64,000 nt of DNA, taken from assembly GCA_963787835.1 (NCBI GenBank), contig CAWBEI010000002.1, forward strand, positions 384,001-448,000, given 5' to 3'. Positions 52,777 to 61,600 of the stretch are shown piece by piece (positions within the stretch are counted from its first letter, which is position 1; the number at the start of each line of letters is the position of its first letter). This DNA comes from Ignavibacteriota bacterium (lineage in GTDB: Bacteria; Bacteroidota; Ignavibacteria; Palsa-1295). A program made the translations under genes and the position numbers. The notes under the pieces were generated by a model. It was not told the DNA's origin, searched no databases, and was given only the letters and a program-made list of their open reading frames with translations.

Positions 52777-52868
52777 GGAGGCGTTGAGCGTTCCCCTGTT
52801 TGCCAAAGGAAACGCATTTAGTTGAAAATTTATTTGTAACCCGAGCGACGTTGTGCGTTCTTGTCTAT

Positions 52869-55043
52869 ATGGGAAAAACACTTCTAATTTTACTCAGCCT
52901 CGCGCTAACTTCGATCTCTCACGCGCAAGGCGGTTATTGGCAGCAATTGAATGGTCCGACGGGAGGGTATTCTGTGGCTATTGCGTCAGGTACAGATAAT
53001 ACCGTTTACTTATTAAGCGATTGGCTTTTGTGGAAGCGTTCTCCGGAAGATCCAGGCTGGGTTCGAATGGGTCGTCTCCCATTCTTTCCCGATTTTATAC
53101 AGCTTGCTCCAGCACCCTTCCCTTATCCTAATTTTATTGCTGCCTTTGGAAAATTGTTTGTTGGCGGCGACCTGCCCAGCGGCATTGTTCAATCAAATCC
53201 TGGAACTCTTTGGTCGTCGTCCGACGAAGGTGAGACCTGGAACAACACGGGAATCATAGTTTGTGAAGGAATTACTGTTTCGGGATCCTCTCTCTATGCC
53301 CTCGGTGCGATCCCCGGCGCATTCGCAGTATTTCGCTCCGACGATTCCGGCTCATCATGGAATAATGTTTTCACATCGACTACACGATTAATATCTTTAA
53401 CCGGTTCGCCGTCAAGCCATAAGCTGTATGTGGGAACCAGCAACGGAATCTATTCGAATACACAAGGAGATTCCGTTTGGAGCCTAGTATCTTCCTATTC
53501 ACCCTCGGATGGAAATTCACTTCAACTCTTCGAAGTGGATAGTTCGATCTGTATGGCAACATGGCAGACGCAGAATCCGCTTTCATCTCCATTTTTATTG
53601 TTCCGATCCACTGACGCTGGCCATACATGGGATACGATAGATAACTTGGGGGCGTGGGCGGGAATAATTAGCAAAGACTCCGCAGGTGATTTATGGCAAG
53701 TCCAGCTTAGTGGTCATGGCAACCAAAAAAATCTCTCTAAATCGACCGACAGCGGAAAAACGTGGCAGGCGGAGCCTTTCAACTTTGTTTATGACCCACA
53801 AGCATACATTTGTACCACTCCTTCGGGAACCATGGTAATGAAATCCCTCGAACATGTCTATCGCTATTCGTCATCGTCCTCCCAGTGGTCTCCGTGGGAA
53901 GATTCACTTCGAAATTCCAATATTTTTTCTGTGCTTGCGATTAGTAACGATTCGTTGCTTGTCGTTTCAAGTGGTGGGTTTTATCGAAGCTCCGATGACG
54001 GAGGAACATGGTCAAATGATTCAATCGACGATCCTGATTTTTTATCACAGGGCACGGTCAGTCCGCCAAATTTTATCGGTTATCAAATTCTCCGCTCTCC
54101 GGATGGATCTCTTTTCTGCTGGACGTTCCGTTACGATCCCAACTTAAAGGAATGGGTTACAATATCGGATACAATTAAAGGGCGCTATCAACCGCTTGCT
54201 ATCCTGGCTGTTGATTCTTCCGGGAATATCTATTCGCAGATCGAAGACGTAGGATTCGTCAATGGAATGTGGTATTCCGAACTATTACGGTCTTCCGACA
54301 AGGGAGCACATTGGGACACCTTACCTTCTACACCTTATTCCTGGAATACGCTTACCATAGATGCTCACGGAAGAATCCTTGGCTGTTCACAGGACGGTGG
54401 GTACGCTGCTCCGATTTTTCGATCATCCGATAGTGGTCGAACCTGGAACAAACTGGGGCCTCAGGGCAGTCCCTATTTTACTGCCGTTACGCCACGCGGA
54501 GATATTTTTGCATCTATTTTAGGCAGTGATTCTGTTGGAACCTTCTATATGATGCAATCCTCGGATGACGGCACTTCGTGGGAAGCGACGGGAAGAACGA
54601 CACAAATTGATTGTTTTGCTGTTGACGGAGATTCGTCAGTATTCCTGGTTAATGGTTACGGTGAAATAATGAAAACTTCCGGTGCCAATCAAAGTTGGAA
54701 AGAAATCTACGCTTCTTCTGATACCGAGATGTACTCTCTTGCCGTAAGCCCTGATCGTCAATTGTTTGCAGGCAGTTTTTTCGATGGTCTATTCCGTTAT
54801 GTTCCTTCCTCTTCGAGCGTTGAAACTACAGTATCTGCTCCTGAAACTTTCTCCATATTCCCCAATCCGGCTGCAAACCAAATTCACATAACATCGAGTG
54901 AAGGAAATATTTCTATTCTCGATCCTCTTGGCCGGAGTTATGAAGTAAACCAAACCGGCAACACGCTCGATATTTCCGCACTCCCCTCCGGCGTGTATTT
55001 CACAAGCGATGGGCATTCGCGGGCAAAATTTGTGAAGGAATAG
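52869..55043 (+). CDS. T9SS cargo with BNR/Asp-box repeats
   Basis: Signal ..SHAQ; RS.D.G.TW repeats; CTD IFPNPA...LPSGVYF. Confidence 0.9.
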   Translation: MGKTLLILLSLALTSISHAQGGYWQQLNGPTGGYSVAIASGTDNTVYLLSDWLLWKRSPEDPGWVRMGRLPFFPDFIQLAPAPFPYPNFIAAFGKLFVGGDLPSGIVQSNPGTLWSSSDEGETWNNTGIIVCEGITVSGSSLYALGAIPGAFAVFRSDDSGSSWNNVFTSTTRLISLTGSPSSHKLYVGTSNGIYSNTQGDSVWSLVSSYSPSDGNSLQLFEVDSSICMATWQTQNPLSSPFLLFRSTDAGHTWDTIDNLGAWAGIISKDSAGDLWQVQLSGHGNQKNLSKSTDSGKTWQAEPFNFVYDPQAYICTTPSGTMVMKSLEHVYRYSSSSSQWSPWEDSLRNSNIFSVLAISNDSLLVVSSGGFYRSSDDGGTWSNDSIDDPDFLSQGTVSPPNFIGYQILRSPDGSLFCWTFRYDPNLKEWVTISDTIKGRYQPLAILAVDSSGNIYSQIEDVGFVNGMWYSELLRSSDKGAHWDTLPSTPYSWNTLTIDAHGRILGCSQDGGYAAPIFRSSDSGRTWNKLGPQGSPYFTAVTPRGDIFASILGSDSVGTFYMMQSSDDGTSWEATGRTTQIDCFAVDGDSSVFLVNGYGEIMKTSGANQSWKEIYASSDTEMYSLAVSPDRQLFAGSFFDGLFRYVPSSSSVETTVSAPETFSIFPNPAANQIHITSSEGNISILDPLGRSYEVNQTGNTLDISALPSGVYFTSDGHSRAKFVKE

Positions 55044-55070: not shown

Positions 55071-55937
55071 TCAGTTCGTCTCAGAGACCTCAAATATGAT
55101 ATTGCCACCCGCGATCTTCCCTTTCCGGGCGATCTCTTCTTTGCACCGGCTGCAAATAATGACCTCATCATTCTTATGTTGAACTTCTTCGATCAGCCCG
55201 GAAACGAAGATGGCAGAAGGAACCGCGAAGACCCCCAGGCCGCAAAATGCCGTGATCACTGCGAACACCTTTCCCCACGGCGTGATGGGTGTCATGTCTC
55301 CGGGAACCTTCGAAAGCGTCGCCGCTGCCCACCAGAACGATCTGGGAATACTCGAGAATATCTTCGGTTGCGCCGTGTGCTCGATGTAATACATCACCGT
55401 AGAAGAGAATATCAGAATGAGAAGGAGCACAAAAAATGCTGTCGCGATCTCGGATTTTTTCGCCTGAAACACGCGGTTCAACGTGGCAAGGGAGGCGGAA
55501 TACTGGCCGATCTTGAAAACACGCGCAAGACGTATGAGTCGAAACATTCGAATGAACCGCAGGTCGAACGGAAGCAACAGCGGAAGATAGAACGGAAGGA
55601 CTGCGAATAAGTCGATCAGTGCGAACGGAGTAGCGATATAGCGCAACCTCCCGACGATCGGGTGGGAGTATTTTTCATCCTCCACGATCGACCACAGCCG
55701 AAGAAGATATTCTACGGAAAATAAGCTTACCGTGATGATCTCCAGAACATAAAACAGCGTCTCATATTTCTCCGCAATGGTAACTTCCGATTCCAGGATC
55801 ACCGAGAGAACGCTCAGGCTAATGAGGCTTGCGATGAAGATACGAACAAACCGTTGACCTTTGTGTTCAAGATCGGAACCAAATAGTAGTTCGTGAACAC
55901 GGTGACGCGCCCGCAATAGTGAAGATTCTTCCGGCAT
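55071..55937 (-). CDS. 6-TM ion transport (voltage-gated K+ channel-like) protein with degenerate filter
   Basis: EYLLRLW, IDL.A.LPFYL, S4 LRFIRMFRLIRLARVFK, FSSIP.SFWW; filter TLSKVPGD. Confidence 0.88.
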   Translation of the reverse strand: MPEESSLLRARHRVHELLFGSDLEHKGQRFVRIFIASLISLSVLSVILESEVTIAEKYETLFYVLEIITVSLFSVEYLLRLWSIVEDEKYSHPIVGRLRYIATPFALIDLFAVLPFYLPLLLPFDLRFIRMFRLIRLARVFKIGQYSASLATLNRVFQAKKSEIATAFFVLLLILIFSSTVMYYIEHTAQPKIFSSIPRSFWWAAATLSKVPGDMTPITPWGKVFAVITAFCGLGVFAVPSAIFVSGLIEEVQHKNDEVIICSRCKEEIARKGKIAGGNIIFEVSETN

Positions 55938-55964
55938 GGATATACTGAACGCTTTTTCTATAGT

Positions 55965-57905
55965 TCAGGCTCCTTTGGGTACTTCGAGCGGCCGGTCGCG
56001 ATGCATCAGGATCCAGTCGCCGTTTTCGATAAGGGCTTCGCGGCCGAGTTCAGCGACGAACGCACGAGCGTCCGCAAGCCGGTCTTCACCAAGCAGTTTT
56101 TCAAGATGCACGGTCGCGCGATGGTAGAACACGCTCATGCGGTCGTATTGACGCTTATGTTCAGCAAGCGCATTTTTTTGTAGGTAGCTATGCAATACTG
56201 CGGCTAATACAGGAAAGACACCAATGCCAAGCAGAATATATTCATTAGGATGGCGGTACAAGAACGCCTGCACTGCCGCAAGCAGAAGCGCACCAATGAA
56301 CAACGCCATGATACGCTTTTCCTGAACATGAAGGATCCGGTGATCGCGATGAGCGGATTTCGCAAAATATTTCGCCTGATCTTCGACCCAATGTTTCAGA
56401 ACCAATTTCAAGTGTTCGCGCTCGGTGTCCCTGTCCTCCGGTGCGGACATATCGGACGCATGCGGGGTGCTTTCGATGGTTCCCGCACGGATCGCATTGC
56501 GGATCCAGTCGAGTTCGCTGCGCTGCTTGCGCATGTAGAAATCTGCTACGGAATCCTGAACGCCAGCCAATTTCCAGAAAAATTGTACTCGCAAACCCTC
56601 CGCAAGGGCGCGGTAATCGAGGTATCTGGTTTGGAACCCGTGCTGTTCCGCCCAGTAATACACGACGAACGATAAGAAGAACATTCCCAGATACAACCCG
56701 AGCATCACCGGCTCCTGAAAAAGGCCGGAGTACATTTCATAGAATAGCGCGGCAAAGAACACGAAGGTCAGAAGCAGTTGCAGCGTTGTTTTCGTGCGTC
56801 GCTGAAAGCGTTGCGAAAGCACATCGGCGATCGCATAAAAATCGAGATCTTCGCGGAGCGTGAGCGGTAATTCAGCCTTGTGCTCGCCCTTCGCGTGCTG
56901 TTCTCCTTTATGATGATGCCGTTTCCGTTTATGTCCAACGAGATGGTGGACGCGTGTGGGCAATACGTATTCCTTGCTCGCGCGGAAATGCTCTTTTAAT
57001 TCTTCAGAATATTTGATCGCGTCCGTGTTGAACGTTTCCATGCGCTCATAGACATCATGATACGCTTTTTCGGCATCTGCGCGGGCCGGGAAACCGGTGG
57101 GATAGATCCGGCGCGTCGTAAACGCGCGAGCCGGGTGCGGATTGATCCTGCGCGGCGTGACGATATGATAGACCGGGCCGGTATCCGGTGCATCGAGCTC
57201 GCTATGCGCCTTCGCGAACGGCTCAGGAACCCCTTCGAGCTTAAACTGCACCACTTGCGACGTGCCACCGATCAAATTCAGTTCCACGCCGTCCCACAGC
57301 GCAATAAGGATCGCGCTGCGGCTGGCAAGATACGCACCAACGAGCGCATACTGCTGCTCGCGAAATAAGCCGTGCTCCTGAATATCCTCGCGGGTAAGCC
57401 CCGGCATGATCGGAAGCTCGGTGTAGTATTCGGCACGTTCGATCAAGCGGTGAAATTCTTCGAGGGATGCCGCATCGAAATCCGTTTCGTAAAGTTCGGC
57501 GGGCATGGGCAGCACTACGGCAAGGCGCATTCCGGCTTCGAGCGCGATGCGAGCCACCAAGCGGTCGGCGCCATCGGCAAGCGCGGAGAGCAGCGTGAGC
57601 GGAGTCGAGGGATACGTCTTCCGCAAATACGAAAGCTCAGCAATAACAAGTTCCGTGAGCCGGGGAAGGTCTTCCTTGCAAAGATCGCGGTGACCTGTTA
57701 CGCCAACGATAAGCGGCAGCGGCCCCACTTCGCCGGTTCCCTGCGTGCCCCATCGCAACGAGTGCAGGGTATGATGATGCGGATGCAAGAGTTCATCGTC
57801 GATGAACTGCTCCACCGGGGATTCGGTGACCGAGGCAGCGCCACCGGGATGGGTACCGTTCATCCCGGTTAATAGCGTAGCCGGCTCGTTAGAGGTTATT
57901 TCCAT
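55965..57905 (-). CDS. SLOG (YpsA-like) domain fused to two SLATT (2TM) effector domains
   Basis: VGVTGHRD, LSALADGADRLVA, LIALWDG..GGTSQVV; YLDYRALAEGLRV, WVEDQAKYF, EALIENGDW; four TM helices. Confidence 0.8.
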   Translation of the reverse strand: MEITSNEPATLLTGMNGTHPGGAASVTESPVEQFIDDELLHPHHHTLHSLRWGTQGTGEVGPLPLIVGVTGHRDLCKEDLPRLTELVIAELSYLRKTYPSTPLTLLSALADGADRLVARIALEAGMRLAVVLPMPAELYETDFDAASLEEFHRLIERAEYYTELPIMPGLTREDIQEHGLFREQQYALVGAYLASRSAILIALWDGVELNLIGGTSQVVQFKLEGVPEPFAKAHSELDAPDTGPVYHIVTPRRINPHPARAFTTRRIYPTGFPARADAEKAYHDVYERMETFNTDAIKYSEELKEHFRASKEYVLPTRVHHLVGHKRKRHHHKGEQHAKGEHKAELPLTLREDLDFYAIADVLSQRFQRRTKTTLQLLLTFVFFAALFYEMYSGLFQEPVMLGLYLGMFFLSFVVYYWAEQHGFQTRYLDYRALAEGLRVQFFWKLAGVQDSVADFYMRKQRSELDWIRNAIRAGTIESTPHASDMSAPEDRDTEREHLKLVLKHWVEDQAKYFAKSAHRDHRILHVQEKRIMALFIGALLLAAVQAFLYRHPNEYILLGIGVFPVLAAVLHSYLQKNALAEHKRQYDRMSVFYHRATVHLEKLLGEDRLADARAFVAELGREALIENGDWILMHRDRPLEVPKGA

Positions 57906-57995
57906 TATACGAAGTTACGAAAATAATAGTTAGGTGGTGCAACAAACATATTTCTATTGTGCTATTACACCTTATTATTTTCATTAACAGTATTC

Positions 57996-58024
57996 TTGAC
58001 AAAGCAACAAAATTGGCGTAAGTT
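57996..58024 (+). promoter_or_regulatory. Sigma70-type promoter TTGACA-N17-TAAGTT
   Basis: Upstream of small ORF 58168 in AT-rich divergent region. Confidence 0.55.
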
Positions 58025-58167
58025 TGTATAGAGCGGTTGCAATTTGTCACCCAAAATTTCCTTTTTCGATCGCTCGAGCTCTGTTGAGACTGTGGGAATA
58101 TGTAGTTTGGGTTGCCAACGGCACGGCGGACGTTCCGCCGGGTTTACTTTATTCTTGAAATACACGT

Positions 58168-58482
58168 ATGGGTTACACATGGACAAAAAAAAATGCGACC
58201 ACCGTTGAGATGGTTGCTACAACCGCTGCAGCTCCCGGTATCACCGTCTCCTGGCAAACAACAAATGGATGGACCGTCAATGCAGGCGGTCAATCATCGA
58301 GCACGTCACCAATTGTACTTCCCGGCACGGGGACTTATGAGCTCACCGTCTCGAATAGTGGGAGTCAAAATGTTTCCTCCGGCCCCAACCCAACCTCGGG
58401 TCAGAATTCGGTCGTTAGCTTCGGGGGAGGGCAAGTAGGAACTATAACACTTAATCTAGAAGGCAATCCTATGGGCACATAA
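58168..58482 (+). CDS. Small T/S/G-rich beta-strand protein, unknown function
   Basis: 104-aa ATG ORF filling the intergenic gap, own promoter, no signal peptide. Confidence 0.65.
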   Translation: MGYTWTKKNATTVEMVATTAAAPGITVSWQTTNGWTVNAGGQSSSTSPIVLPGTGTYELTVSNSGSQNVSSGPNPTSGQNSVVSFGGGQVGTITLNLEGNPMGT

Positions 58483-58606
58483 ACCCAATTGGGATCTGCC
58501 GGTGCGCTCTTTCTTGTCTGCCGTCGATAAAACCCTCGACACTGGGGATGTCAATGATGGTTATTTTGAGAATAGGAACCCGTACTTCAGAATTGGAGGC
58601 GGGTTC

Positions 58607-61600
58607 CTATGTATTCATAATTCCCAATTTTTCACGCATTTCCTCCAACCGCTTCTTCGCCCTTATTGCATCCGGATTTCCGGAACCATACGTCTTCTCG
58701 TAGTAGGGAAGATATTTTTCGTAGTAGGGAATCGCTTGCTCATAATTTCCCTCGAGATAATACATATAGCCAATACCAACGCCGGAAGTAAATATCACGG
58801 GCAACAACGGCCCTGGCCTGTTTCTTGCGGACTCGACGACGGACTCGTATAGCGAACGTGCTCCGGGAATATCATTGATCCCCAATTTCGCGTTTGCCAT
58901 TTGTTGCCTGCAAATACAGGTTTGTTTATGATAAGGACCAAGAGTTCCCATGTAGATCGTTTCTGCTTCCCGTAATTCCGTTAATGCTTCTGAAAACCTA
59001 CTTGTTCGATTGAAATATGCTGCAAGTTGGGTCTTGGCTTGGGCCATAGCAGTATGTGATGCTCCAAAATGTTCTGAAACAATCCCAGCAAACCGCCGGA
59101 AATAGTCTTCTGCCTCAGCAAATTTAGATGCATTGGTAAGAAGGGAGCCTAAGCTGTTATACCGAGGCGATATTTCTCTGCTTCGTGGGCCATATAGTTC
59201 CGCACATTCGTCAATTGATTTCCGAAGGATCTTTTCGGCTTCTTCGATCCTTCCGAGATGATATAGTGCATAGAATATATGATCGAGAATCTCTACTCGA
59301 TTTTTTGGGAACGGAAGTATTGCCGGGTCATTGACCATTTTTTCAGATCGTTCGAGAGCAATATCGTATTTCCCAAGATTGTTAAGAATAAGAATTTGTT
59401 TTTCACGCAATTCAAGCTGTAGCTTCGTCTCCATTGCAAGTTTTTCAACCTGCGGATATCCTGCGCCGAATACCTCGTCGGCTCGCGTATATTCGGAGGC
59501 AAGCACGAGGAGTTCGATCGCATTCGTAAAAGCTTGAACGACCGTATTGGAGTTTAGGCCGGAACCCATAAGGCGAGGAATGTATTCGGCATCGATCTCG
59601 ACGTTTCCGAATTCGCGCCAATATCCGAGTGCTTCATATCGCTCGTGATCGGTTTCAAGCAGGGCAAGCATCCCTGGTTCGAGCAGTGAACGCTTCAAGG
59701 CATCGTGCTCCCCGGCAGCCTGCCACTGCCACGGTTCTTCCGCTCGCCGGCGTTCGCCGAATTCTCGCGTTGAAAAATATCTTCCGATGTGGGCATGGGA
59801 AGCTTTTTTCTCCTTCTCCTCGGGCACGTACCGCTGCTCGATCGCCTCCCGCAAAAAGTTATGGAAGAAGGAATGGAAGCCTTCTCGAACCATCAGGTGG
59901 TATTCCATCGCGATCATCAGTTCCGAAAGCGCCATACGGGGCTTGCCGGTGATCTCCATCAGTTCCGCCTCCGACAGCCCATGACGGGACGCCCAGATGG
60001 CTGTCATCACCGTGCGAACAGATTCCTCGCCGTGGTCGCGCTCTAAGCGGGCCAGCACCTTCTGGAATAGCTCCCGTTCATCGGCACTACCCAGATAATC
60101 CGCAAGGTGTTCATGCAAGGATTGGTGATGGCCGAAGATGCGCAGTTCTTCCAACACCGTTCGTAAAAAGAGCGGGCTCGATGATTTGGGATCGGATGAA
60201 AGCGTGTGAAGATCTTTTTGCGGCAGCGATTTACGATACCGTTTCAGGAAATTGCTCGCAATAGCTTCCCGCTGATGCTCGGTGAGCGACTGAAGTTCCA
60301 GCTCGTTCCAGTTCCGTTTGCGAAGCTGTTCGAGCGGCACACTGTCCGCCGTCGTCGAAAGCACGAGCCGAACGTTCGGTGGGATGAACTCCGGCAGCCA
60401 GTGCATTTCCGTCGCAACACCGGTAAGCTGGTTGAGGGCATCAATGAAGAGGACCAGCTTATCCGTCTCCCCCTCCTTAAGGAGGAGGGGGTTGGGGGGC
60501 GGTTCCTGCGCATCGAAAAAACCACCCCCTGCCCCCTCCTTCTTTAGGAGGGGGGTGCTTCCAACTTTCGCCAGCCAGACTGGGAACTCCTCGCGAAGTG
60601 TGGTATCATCCGTTGGAACGGTTTCGGAAAGCGCATATCGCTCTTTGATCTCCATCATGACCTGACGGATGACATCTTCGGGATCGCTTCCCTCTGCCGC
60701 ACCGATAAAATGCTGCACGACGAATGCATTCGGGTTCTGCGTTTGATATTCATGCGCCAAATGAGACATCAGCGCGCTCTTCCCCAAACCTGATCGTCCC
60801 CAAATGACGAGCGGGGGCCCATCGGACTCCACATGTTTGACGAACGCGTCATAATATGCGGGATTCGCCACATAGGCTCGCCTGCGGTTGATCGAAAAAG
60901 CTTCGTGCTCGATGCGCTCACGTTCGAGCGGCGTCAGATCGCGTTTGGCAGGGAAATGCCGATCGAGAATCGAAATTATATCCTGAAACACCAGCTCGCC
61001 AAGTTCTTCGGGATCGTTGAAACGGCGGTAGGGAACTCCGGTGGATTGGAGGGTTTCTTTGAGAGTGGATAACCCTTTGGACGCTATGGACTTGTTGGAC
61101 AGAGTGGTGTCCAAATTGTCCATGGCGTCCATCACGTCCACCGAACCGCCAAGCACCTGTTCATAAAAAAAAGAAGAATCATTTTTTTCCAGGAGTGCGC
61201 CATGTGCGAACTCCATCTCGATAATGCTCTTTTCTTTGGCGGCAAAATCCCGGAGCCACGGAAATTCTTTCAGGATCTCCCTATCCTTCTCGATCTCAGT
61301 AATACCAGGGACCCATCCATACCTCGAACCAATGATGCCTATAAAATAGGGACGGCAGCGGTCGATCTCCTCTAAACAAATGCGGATCGTTTTTCCCGTG
61401 CGTGATTCGTCTTCTGTGATGCCCCACCGCAGGTCGATCTCGGTGAACTCCACGCCACGCTCCCGGCATTCTTTTCGTATCCGGGGAAATACTTTTTTGA
61501 CAAGCTGCTCCCGTTCCGGCTGTAGATCCCGGAACGTCGAGGAGACGAACAGGCGGAGTTCGTTCTTTCGCGCTTCGCGGCTGTGCTGGTGATCCGGCAT
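58607..61600 (-). CDS. DUF4062 (TIR-like) + NACHT/STAND NTPase + TPR protein (NLR-like)
   Basis: LFVSSTFRDLQPERE, IDLRWG, ICLEEIDRCRPYFIGIIGSRYG, SIIEME; Walker A GRSGLGKS, Walker B LFIDALNQL; SPLFL; C-terminal TPRs. Confidence 0.9.
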   Translation of the reverse strand: MPDHQHSREARKNELRLFVSSTFRDLQPEREQLVKKVFPRIRKECRERGVEFTEIDLRWGITEDESRTGKTIRICLEEIDRCRPYFIGIIGSRYGWVPGITEIEKDREILKEFPWLRDFAAKEKSIIEMEFAHGALLEKNDSSFFYEQVLGGSVDVMDAMDNLDTTLSNKSIASKGLSTLKETLQSTGVPYRRFNDPEELGELVFQDIISILDRHFPAKRDLTPLERERIEHEAFSINRRRAYVANPAYYDAFVKHVESDGPPLVIWGRSGLGKSALMSHLAHEYQTQNPNAFVVQHFIGAAEGSDPEDVIRQVMMEIKERYALSETVPTDDTTLREEFPVWLAKVGSTPLLKKEGAGGGFFDAQEPPPNPLLLKEGETDKLVLFIDALNQLTGVATEMHWLPEFIPPNVRLVLSTTADSVPLEQLRKRNWNELELQSLTEHQREAIASNFLKRYRKSLPQKDLHTLSSDPKSSSPLFLRTVLEELRIFGHHQSLHEHLADYLGSADERELFQKVLARLERDHGEESVRTVMTAIWASRHGLSEAELMEITGKPRMALSELMIAMEYHLMVREGFHSFFHNFLREAIEQRYVPEEKEKKASHAHIGRYFSTREFGERRRAEEPWQWQAAGEHDALKRSLLEPGMLALLETDHERYEALGYWREFGNVEIDAEYIPRLMGSGLNSNTVVQAFTNAIELLVLASEYTRADEVFGAGYPQVEKLAMETKLQLELREKQILILNNLGKYDIALERSEKMVNDPAILPFPKNRVEILDHIFYALYHLGRIEEAEKILRKSIDECAELYGPRSREISPRYNSLGSLLTNASKFAEAEDYFRRFAGIVSEHFGASHTAMAQAKTQLAAYFNRTSRFSEALTELREAETIYMGTLGPYHKQTCICRQQMANAKLGINDIPGARSLYESVVESARNRPGPLLPVIFTSGVGIGYMYYLEGNYEQAIPYYEKYLPYYEKTYGSGNPDAIRAKKRLEEMREKLGIMNT

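Follow-up and report, generated by a model that had tools for sequence, protein, structure and literature searches.

A NIR-NACHT gene with an exchangeable TPR and partner cassette near a putative SLOG-2xSLATT effector gene in an Ignavibacteriota genome

NLR-like defense proteins with an N-terminal DUF4062 (NIR) domain carrying a catalytic glutamate, a STAND NTPase, and a TPR sensor have been described as NIR-containing Avs2 (PsAvs2), Swarozyc, Vulcan, Vesta, and Evangelion (10.64898/2026.09.04.749371; 10.64898/2026.05.01.722283). As far as the accessible parts of the published work describe them, characterized DUF4062 domains are NAD-depleting executioners whose products are linear ADP-ribose and nicotinamide, and the literature searched reports no second messenger from any NIR domain; human NWD1, NWD2, and NPHP3 are inactive in vitro despite the wide conservation of the glutamate. 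A TIR-type NAD+ enzyme is tied to a SLOG or SLATT domain in Thoeris type I (TIR with SIR2-SLOG) and type VII (TIR with SLATT, cADPR), and the survey of these systems, in its accessible parts, set aside Avs-like proteins of the TIR-STAND, TIR-TPR, and NIR-NACHT kinds while presenting 29 putative effectors in a figure (10.64898/2025.12.03.692087). YpsA-clade SLOG domains and the SLOG/TIR/SLATT conflict systems predicted by Burroughs and Aravind, which share the YpsA fold and GxD motif of the protein described below, are covered in a further group of papers, where SLATT is predicted to be a nucleotide-regulated membrane effector (PMC9503650, PMC6459960, PMC7159879) and GxD/E is given as the substrate motif of the YpsA clade (PMC6459960).

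The locus analyzed here lies in a window of 64,000 nucleotides from an Ignavibacteriota bacterium (GCA_963787835.1, contig CAWBEI010000002.1). A first-pass annotation had listed three co-oriented genes and a small opposite-strand ORF, with 27 nt between the SLOG and channel genes, and all four ORFs were recovered at the same positions with the same gap from SLOG stop to channel start (Table 1). Its domain calls for the three larger genes are supported by Pfam, a structure model of the SLOG protein, and hydropathy. Its reading of the three as one system was not borne out by neighborhood counts, which support neither the channel nor the NLR-SLOG adjacency. The NLR and SLOG genes lie 701 nt apart with the opposite-strand small gene between them and so form no evident operon; the stops of the small gene and the NLR lie tail-to-tail, 124 nt apart. 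The flanks hold T9SS-type and amidase genes (eight window proteins scanned), and PADLOC (2023 library) gave no match under E 0.05 for the four locus proteins. We tentatively read the locus as two separately inherited immune-type parts with a bystander channel.

Table 1. Features of the locus (window positions)
Feature	Position	Strand	Description
NLR-like gene	58607..61600	-	997 aa from ATG; DUF4062/NIR, NACHT, winged helix, TPR sensor (Pfam)
NIR (DUF4062) domain, aa 14-193	61022..61561	-	Alignment to TEP1
Swappable TPR part of NLR, from about aa 645-650	58607..59653	-	Identity drop versus relatives
Small all-beta gene	58168..58482	+	104 aa, leaderless; homologues and structure model
Divergent intergenic region, small gene/SLOG gene	57906..58167		Conserved upstream DNA, promoter-like elements
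SLOG-2xSLATT gene	55965..57905	-	646 aa; SLOG YpsA-like, aa 63-265; predicted TM 377-395, 400-418, 532-550, 557-575
6-TM voltage-sensor-type channel	55071..55937	-	288 aa; Pfam Ion_trans 29-250

The order of N-terminal effector, STAND NTPase, and C-terminal repeats in the NLR matches the NIR-STAND (Avs-like NLR) layout, with Pfam matches to DUF4062 (residues 16-101, E 1e-14), NACHT (264-453), HTH_NWD1, and TPRs. Its NIR domain aligns with that of TEP1 (PDB 11gz) at E 4e-21, which places R24, R93, and E130 opposite TEP1 R908, R976, and E1008. The conserved glutamate pointed out earlier in the motif SIIEME is the second Glu of that motif, E130, and is retained together with the Walker A lysine K274 in 41 of 41 family NLRs; both Walker A (K274) and Walker B (D387) are intact in the window protein. 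The NLR bears an intact NIR (DUF4062) NAD-cleaving motif, from which activity is predicted. Unlike the PsAvs2 group, as far as the accessible parts of the reports describe it, the window NIR-NACHT is of the TEP1/NPHP3/NWD1-like kind, is present in several copies per genome, has a TPR part that is swapped with a facing small gene, and belongs to an NLR type that is operonic with SLOG-2xSLATT in some genomes.

Compared with six of eight relatives, identity of the NLR drops from mostly 70-90% to 8-30% after a sharp breakpoint near residue 645, and GC content is 45% in the TPR part versus 55% in the N-terminal half. Among 21 NLR pairs whose TPRs share at least 30% identity, 9 have partner proteins with homologous bodies, as against 1 among the 210 remaining pairs; of 34 pairs in which the N-half is at least 70% but the TPR less than 30% identical, none do (permutation p 5e-5). 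The thresholds (30% identity, score 60) were set after inspection of the data, and the genomes are kin. Within the family, only genome G002 carries a clear homologue of the small ORF, and this homologue stands at the sole NLR with a TPR more than 50% identical; in a peat relative the channel, SLOG, and NLR N-half are covered while the TPR and small gene are not, one of its contigs continuing unlike the window from 59817. More widely, a low-charge convergent gene lies downstream in 23 of 38 NLRs having downstream DNA and another kind of gene at the other 15, and a terminal alternating strand is found in 18 of 22 partners versus 21 of 93 internal windows; a truncated near-copy (L204), partners failing the composition filter, and six family-like metagenome loci were left out before counting. 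The small gene swaps together with the TPR end as one cassette, between the conserved NIR-NACHT half and the conserved promoter region of the small gene.

The first-pass annotation had passed over the small ORF, yet it is the most regular companion of the NLR. Homologues at 77% and 40% indicate that it is a real gene, and the 104-aa ATG frame was used instead of an overlapping 108-aa frame because homologues exist for that frame only. The protein is 60% Gly/Ser/Thr/Asn/Pro and has neither aspartate nor leader. Its model (pLDDT 76; of five models built on an alignment of three rows, one was good) is all-beta, and the nearest folds are LecB (Z 7.0) and thrombocorticin (Z 6.7), the next unrelated fold scoring Z 4.9; the LecB match covers 92 of 104 residues at an rmsd of 3.0, with a middling Z and a Foldseek E of at least 0.2. 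The model weakly suggests a beta-sandwich with a slight resemblance to LecB. It differs from the LecB/PA-IIL fold, its top structural match, in having no Pfam or sequence similarity and no Asp for the acidic two-calcium sugar site. Pfam gave weak matches and no family for this protein or the low-charge partners submitted, and searches for PDB sequence matches and viral folds returned none. A beta-grasp or ubiquitin-like reading of the Gly-Gly tails seen on some partners was rejected since the model contains no helix. The DNA upstream of the small gene is conserved and contains a TAnnTTTG element (58019-58026), presumably a Bacteroidota-type -7 box, that recurs in 12 of 16 upstream regions; a sigma70-like site precedes the SLOG gene on the minus strand (58002-57974).

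For the SLOG-2xSLATT protein, the Pfam SLOG match and both SLATT matches are weak and below cut-off (SLATT_1 and SLATT_3, E 6e-5 to 0.01), and many homologues bear precomputed SLATT or DUF4231 labels. The structure model (pTM 0.90) matches YpsA (2nx2) with a Z of 15.4 over 162 residues, and hydropathy predicts 2+2 membrane helices. Conserved SLOG residues are G71, H72, and R73, G112-x-D114, and W204, with G112-A-D114 conserved at 99/95/98% among 194 sequences, so that the domain has both the YpsA-clade fold and the GxD/E substrate motif. By prediction (SLOG fold, four TM helices), it joins a nucleotide-sensing and a killing domain in one effector, as in Thoeris; it differs from Thoeris in the fusion of SLOG to two SLATT units, in neighbors that are mostly TIR-STAND, TIR-TPR, and NIR-NACHT, and in standing alone in the Kapabacteria-like family of the window genome. 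The homologous family numbers 3757 clusters at E <=1e-30. None of 7993 candidates was a longer fused form, which is weak evidence, and apparent long ORFs in GC-rich SLOG loci held no additional Pfam domains; mobile contexts were limited to partial matches on three plasmids and one partial locus among viral contigs, with none in phages. The literature searched contained no experimental data on a SLOG-SLATT fusion, nor the SLOG-2xSLATT/NLR pattern, and bioRxiv supplements and figures may list a SLOG-SLATT effector.

The proposal that SLOG-2xSLATT acts downstream of TIR-like and STAND proteins fared well outside the family, where a TIR, NIR, or STAND neighbor lies no more than 2.5 kb away in 21 of 23 loci with at least 1.5 kb of DNA on each side, or 17 of 19 when counted as clusters. 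With short contigs included, such a neighbor was found at 34 of 70 SLOG loci against a background of 17 of 1041 long ORFs in the window genome, and 34 matches fell in 175 kb near SLOG versus 2 in 142 kb far from it; the second ring of metagenome neighbors was scanned with our own profiles only, partly built from these same loci, and Pfam confirmed 11 of 12 neighbor ORFs checked. A paralogue, SLOG-B, is operonic with the same NLR type (SLOG followed by DUF4062-NACHT-TPR) in four genomes, and further SLOG/NIR-NLR neighbors occur in G216, G378, and L131/L136. In relatives outside the family, and for SLOG-B, the effector gene shares an operon with its signal gene as in Thoeris; at the window locus it does not. 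Inside the family, SLOG-2xSLATT is near-core (33 of 34 genomes) and alone at most loci: an NLR is near the window-type gene (SLOG-A) in 4 of 33, all in one shallow clade (from a quick tree with SH-aLRT support only), and G027 has NIR-NLRs without SLOG while G031 has SLOG without NIR, contrary to the idea of a conserved NLR-SLOG module. By its sequence neighborhoods the protein is TIR/NIR/STAND-linked, and a near-core orphan in the Kapabacteria-like family. All but one of the 34 family genomes have a TIR-TPR family (1-25 matches each); G027 (99% complete) is the exception and also the one without SLOG, and G037 has SLOG and 24 NLR matches with no TIR_2 match. In this family SLOG-2xSLATT likely acts in trans for TIR-TPR and NIR sensors dispersed over the genome, on a profile that rests on three or four genomes. 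Inheritance as a near-core, single-copy gene amid housekeeping genes is not what anti-phage genes usually show.

The explanation we favor, though with less than even confidence, is an NLR with a swappable, partner-linked TPR end alongside a SLOG-2xSLATT protein that would open a pore and kill the cell once TIR or NIR sensors encoded across the genome make an ADP-ribose-type signal, with the channel uninvolved. From the genome comparisons, the NLR likely recognizes the product of its own small facing gene, which would be a bait or adaptor monitored by the cognate TPR; cleavage, unfolding, or mislocalization of the small protein might make the terminal strand and the tail accessible to the TPR. 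One SLOG-2xSLATT per genome, probably opening in the membrane, may act for the expanded set of TIR-TPR sensors, and perhaps for the NIR-NLRs as well. Variable repeat sensors are matched to variable self proteins in plant guard/decoy NLR pairs and fungal HET-C/HET-E allorecognition; here, by contrast, the partner and receptor genes meet at their 3' ends within a single exchangeable cassette, and their pairing is read from genomes only.

The strongest competitor, which we regard as somewhat unlikely, is that the NLR is a stand-alone Avs-like NADase sensing a phage protein directly, that the small gene hitchhikes in a recombination tract at the 3' end, and that SLOG-2xSLATT answers canonical TIR proteins only. 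PsAvs2, Swarozyc, and Vulcan act alone and deplete NAD+, according to the accessible parts of their reports, and since published NIR domains yield linear ADP-ribose and kill directly, the NIR signaling step proposed in the first-pass annotation is weakened; in G027 and G031 the presence of SLOG tracks TIR-TPR. Because adjacent DNA recombines together, the tracking of TPR by partner does not show binding, and linkage by itself explains co-exchange. Over all pairs, rank Mantel tests gave weak results (TPR versus tail, rho 0.17, p 0.06; TPR versus body, p 0.26; N-half versus tail, p 0.04), and the tail effect among non-homologous partners was small (21.8 versus 18.4). Tail-specific recognition by the TPR was rejected as a result, the Mantel test not being significant, and is retained as a lead. 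By eye, several partners have signal or lipoprotein leaders, and those would not meet a cytoplasmic TPR. Hitchhiking, however, does not account for the recurrence, next to 23 of 38 NLRs whose chromosomal sites are unrelated, of one unusual type of gene whose products share a terminal strand, and the SLOG-NIR-NLR operons and neighbors, with G037, favor some NIR-SLOG coupling.

It is improbable that the small proteins, instead of being TPR ligands, are cargo (lectin-like adhesins or anti-predator proteins) set free on lysis of the cell by NLR activation and SLATT pores. Leaderless low-charge beta-sandwiches whose two nearest folds are lectins, a conserved promoter region, and the existence of secreted versions agree with such a role, but LecB uses calcium and acidic groups to bind sugar and the window protein has no Asp, the fold match is modest, and cargo need not track TPR type. 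Less probable again is a function outside phage defense, in kin recognition or envelope-stress signaling, in which exported small proteins, processed by a C39-like peptidase at some loci, signal to TPR receptors. RRNPP peptide signaling is a model for this arrangement, which fits a hypervariable receptor with an adjacent small gene, a near-core SLOG, and the lack of a PADLOC defense match. A C39-like peptidase accompanies five of five loci counted, all with Gly-Gly tails (such tails occur in 2 of 18 without it), but these five are kin, the window genome has no such peptidase, most partners are leaderless, and NIR and TIR domains are linked to defense wherever tested.

The three-gene channel system proposed in the first-pass annotation does not hold. 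The channel has a 6-TM topology with an Arg-rich S4, as in KvAP-like voltage-gated K+ channels, and no ligand-binding domain; its filter region has no GYG in the window genome and G002, whereas GYG is found in 10 of 13 other homologues. It stands next to SLOG-2xSLATT at two of the 33 loci in the family and at none of the 76 from metagenomes. Channel DNA is 94-96% identical between the window genome and G002 and most of the SLOG gene 70-84%, a pattern as after recent transfer, and the channel is likely a bystander and recent insertion; as an effector it was rejected on its rarity beside SLOG, its degenerate filter, and these signs of transfer. That NLR, SLOG-2xSLATT, and channel form a dedicated system in which the DUF4062 product opens a SLATT pore or gates the channel is very improbable and largely refuted by the neighborhoods, even though the 27-nt gap is identical in the window genome and G002, a third relative keeps channel and SLOG, 19 cases of TIR genes beside ion-channel genes are reported, and a channel homologue in G010 lies about 300 nt from a TIR gene.

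To our knowledge, direct binding of phage proteins is the rule among the bacterial NLRs examined to date, and the effectors of Thoeris are encoded next to their TIR genes. A receptor swapped with its own variable partner would bring plant and fungal guard/decoy logic to bacteria, and SLOG-2xSLATT is a large family with a strong TIR/STAND link and a predicted function. The compact SLOG and NIR-NACHT-TPR operons bear on a question already in print, whether NIR domains, including those of human TEP1, NWD1/2, and NPHP3, can make signals. At its widest, and with only a slim chance of being right, the finding may mean a distributed, eukaryote-style innate network in a soil bacterial family, in which many NLRs each guard a lectin-fold bait in a cassette and many TIR-TPR sensors operate beside them, all feeding NAD-derived signals into one shared SLOG-2xSLATT pore; if true, bacteria would have a guard/decoy system of their own, and a TEP1-like NIR domain its first signaling role.

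The four open reading frames lie where the first-pass annotation placed them, in a 3.6-Mb host genome (G000), flanked by genes for a T9SS-tailed beta-propeller, a penicillin amidase and a PorW/SprE-like protein. The NLR and SLOG genes are separated by 701 nt, within which lies the 104-aa opposite-strand gene. The closest SLOG homologues carry the labels Ca. Kapabacteria, Kapaibacterium or Ignavibacteriae MAGs. The beta-propeller gene occupies a variable slot, missing in a close peat relative and replaced in G002 and G006.

Coordinates of features at the locus (window positions) and of stretches holding genes of the ~580-aa TIR family in the host genome (contig:positions)
Feature	Position	Strand
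T9SS-tailed beta-propeller gene	52800-55043	
Channel gene	55071-55937	-
SLOG-SLATT gene	55965-57905	-
Small ORF	58168-58482	+
NLR gene	58607-61600	-
NACHT low-complexity insertion	60469-60554	
TIR gene, G000	C1:61271-63016	
TIR gene, G000	C2:884627-888227	
TIR gene, G000	C2:988093-989859	
TIR gene, G000	C7:29295-33489	

Matches to SLOG-2xSLATT (SLOG fused to two SLATT-like 2-TM units) were found in 33 of 34 genomes of the Kapabacteria-like family (in one of them a remnant) and in 2 of 26 genomes outside it, NLR matches in 32 of the 34, mostly in multiple copies, and channel matches in 11. The main SLOG gene was surveyed at 33 loci, of which 20 extend 3 kb or more on each side. The channel adjoins it in two (G000, G002), an NLR with the DUF4062 N-terminal domain (NIR) lies within 3 kb in four (G000, G002, G009, G014), and a TIR gene lies within 3.5 kb in two; the channel was found at none of 76 metagenome SLOG loci, drawn from the best 80 of 529 confirmed matches. 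The proposal that NLR, SLOG-SLATT and channel form one signalling module is contradicted by these neighbourhoods. In a quick tree, which left out the split G014 gene, G000, G002 and G009 fall with G006 in one shallow SLOG clade, and the NLR and SLOG genes of G006 are about 30 kb apart. Channel DNA is 94-96% identical between G000 and G002, most of the SLOG gene 70-84%. The channel retains an intact S4 and has a degenerate filter without GYG, present in 10 of 13 other homologues; no ligand-binding domain was detected in it. The G002 copy is 95% identical, and two more family homologues (L275, L276) have odd filters.

Six of these metagenome loci, taken from the best 80 of 529 confirmed matches, are family-like and have no TIR, NIR or STAND neighbour; 34 of the other 70 have one within 2.5 kb. 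Where at least 1.5 kb was available on both sides, such a neighbour was present in 21 of 23 loci, or 17 of 19 clusters (again within the best 80 of 529), against a background of 17 of 1041 long ORFs in G000; match density in this best-80 set was 34 in 175 kb near SLOG and 2 in 142 kb far from it. The profiles were partly seeded from the same loci with Pfam-confirmed seeds, and Pfam confirmed 11 of 12 ORFs checked later. Neighbours include TIR-nSTAND1-WD40, AAA_35 STAND, TIR-NB-ARC-TPR, TIR-TPR and NIR-NACHT proteins. A phylum sample held SLOG-2xSLATT in 17 of 401 genomes; outside the family and G037, a TIR or NIR gene lies within 2.5 kb of seven of the nine full-length or split genes fetched, seven of the nine being from one genus. 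A second SLOG paralogue in the family lies 3-18 nt upstream of a NIR-NACHT-TPR gene in all four cases with downstream DNA (G019, G020, G022, G025). Gene neighbourhoods thus indicate that SLOG-2xSLATT is tied to TIR-like sensors, though the trio is no module, and to this extent the original interpretation stands. A patatin (G216) and RyR-domain ATPases (G378, G215, L109) also adjoin SLOG-2xSLATT (L171, L176, L178, L109).

The predicted SLOG protein structure (pLDDT 89.6, pTM 0.90) superimposes on YpsA (Z 15.4, 162 aligned residues, rmsd 2.9), and hydropathy predicts two pairs of membrane helices. G71-H72-R73, the G112-x-D114 motif and W204 hardly vary across 194 sequences of this large family; no full-length member was found in the phages or plasmids searched. 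In four family genomes (L045, L056, L058, L066) a frameshift or stop interrupts the gene, and G021 and G049 have a remnant of it, through either assembly error or decay. SLOG and SLATT roles have been predicted (PMC9503650, PMC7159879 and PMC6459960), and the protein resembles type I and type VII Thoeris effectors fused into one (10.64898/2025.12.03.692087); the window locus differs from Thoeris in lacking an evident operon of signal gene and effector. The main texts of Osinski and of Evangelion do not contain the word SLOG, nor do the parts of Le Mouellic covered here, and the sources covered by our search, passages of 10.64898/2025.12.03.692087 among them, describe neither a SLOG-2xSLATT fusion system nor TPR-partner cassettes.

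What might feed the orphan SLOG gene? Six TIR proteins of G000 are about 580-620 aa long, with TPRs in two of three scanned; the genome also encodes one other TIR and has two further NIR genes. The ~580-aa TIR family, whose genes are often in tandem, occurs in 33 of 34 family genomes (1-25 matches each) and 0 of 26 others. The one family genome without it, G027 (99% complete), is also the only one lacking SLOG and keeps two NIR-NLRs; G031 (96%) has SLOG and TIR and no NIR, and G037 has SLOG, 24 NLR matches and zero TIR_2 matches. Because of these profiles, from few genomes, TIR-TPR proteins appear better candidates than NIR-NLRs, themselves possible feeders, and neither NLR nor SLOG seems to need the other.

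The window NLR comprises DUF4062, NACHT, an NWD1-like winged helix and TPRs by Pfam, and may be likened to NIR-Avs2. Its N-terminal domain matches human TEP1 (PDB 11gz, E 4e-21), R24, R93 and E130 aligning to R908, R976 and catalytic E1008 as numbered in 10.64898/2026.05.01.722283. All 41 full-length family NLRs have E130 and the Walker A lysine K274; R93 is conserved in 40 of them and R24 in 32. TEP1 and NPHP3 count as non-immune STANDs in PMC13581612, whose passages covered here mention neither DUF4062 nor SLOG. The NACHT insertion, low-complexity, variable between orthologues and matched by many unrelated contigs, is possibly a small in-frame repeat element. Tandem NIR-NACHT arrays without small partners occur in G037 (L184, L185, L186; at least five consecutive genes in L184), whose SLOG-2xSLATT is a single orphan. 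The NLRs of L217-L222 are split: a 590-aa NIR-NACHT gene is followed by one to three co-oriented ~500-aa genes, which group with the C-terminal half of NLRs.

The TPR part of the NLR is exchanged together with the neighbouring small gene. Close relatives mostly share 70-90% identity to about residue 600 and 8-30% beyond about 650, a break repeated between tandem paralogues in G027. A downstream ORF is present at 38 of 41 full-length NLRs, convergent in 36, and 23 of the 38 encode small (<300 aa), low-charge, G/S/T/N/P-rich proteins. Among 22 partners (one near-copy dropped; thresholds fixed after inspection), homology was found in 9 of 21 pairs with similar TPRs versus 1 of 210 other pairs, and in 0 of 34 pairs with similar N-halves but differing TPRs; the partner family goes with the TPR type and not with the NLR N-half. 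Within the family the window small ORF has a single clear homologue, at the NLR locus of G002, where the TPR is 53% identical; a metagenomic homologue is 77% identical. Peat contigs about 92% identical together span the channel, SLOG and the N-half of the NLR and leave the small gene and TPR uncovered. Upstream of the small gene the DNA is conserved even before a different gene (75% over 200 nt versus G006), and 12 of 16 such regions carry TAnnTTTG, the consensus of the Bacteroidota-type -7 box. An alternating terminal strand is common to partners (18 of 22 versus 21 of 93 internal windows). Modelling gives the small protein an all-beta sandwich fold (pLDDT 76 for the best of five models); the closest solved structures are LecB (Z 7.0) and thrombocorticin (Z 6.7), the next scoring 4.9, and LecB reaches only E 0.2 in Foldseek. 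Sugar binding by LecB involves two calcium ions and acidic groups (PMC1903359), whereas the 104-aa protein contains no Asp.

Several other genes accompany these cassettes. A secreted C39-like peptidase recurs nearby (L037, L187, L192, L194, L196, L199, L212), usually with an unknown secreted partner, and goes with Gly-Gly tails among low-charge partners (5 of 5 versus 2 of 18). In L203 and L204, three or four Hcp-like (T6SS_HCP) genes whose N-termini resemble leaders lie in tandem just past the cassette, and a separate NLR clade (L205, L210, L213, L215) stands tail-to-tail, 2-9 nt away, with a conserved 702-aa flavin-oxidoreductase-like gene.

Whole-matrix Mantel tests for TPR/partner tracking were weak, and co-transfer would be explicable by physical linkage alone. 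The main rival, in which the NLR acts as a stand-alone Avs-like NADase and the small gene hitchhikes, strikes us as somewhat less likely. We tentatively favor, as the likeliest joint explanation, that the cognate small protein serves as a bait or adaptor on which the TPR keeps watch, presumably by binding it, and that activation would oligomerize NACHT and switch on a putatively catalytic NIR. SLOG-2xSLATT would then be a shared membrane effector of the family, gated by a predicted nucleotide signal to open a SLATT pore, and serving dispersed TIR, perhaps NIR, sensors.
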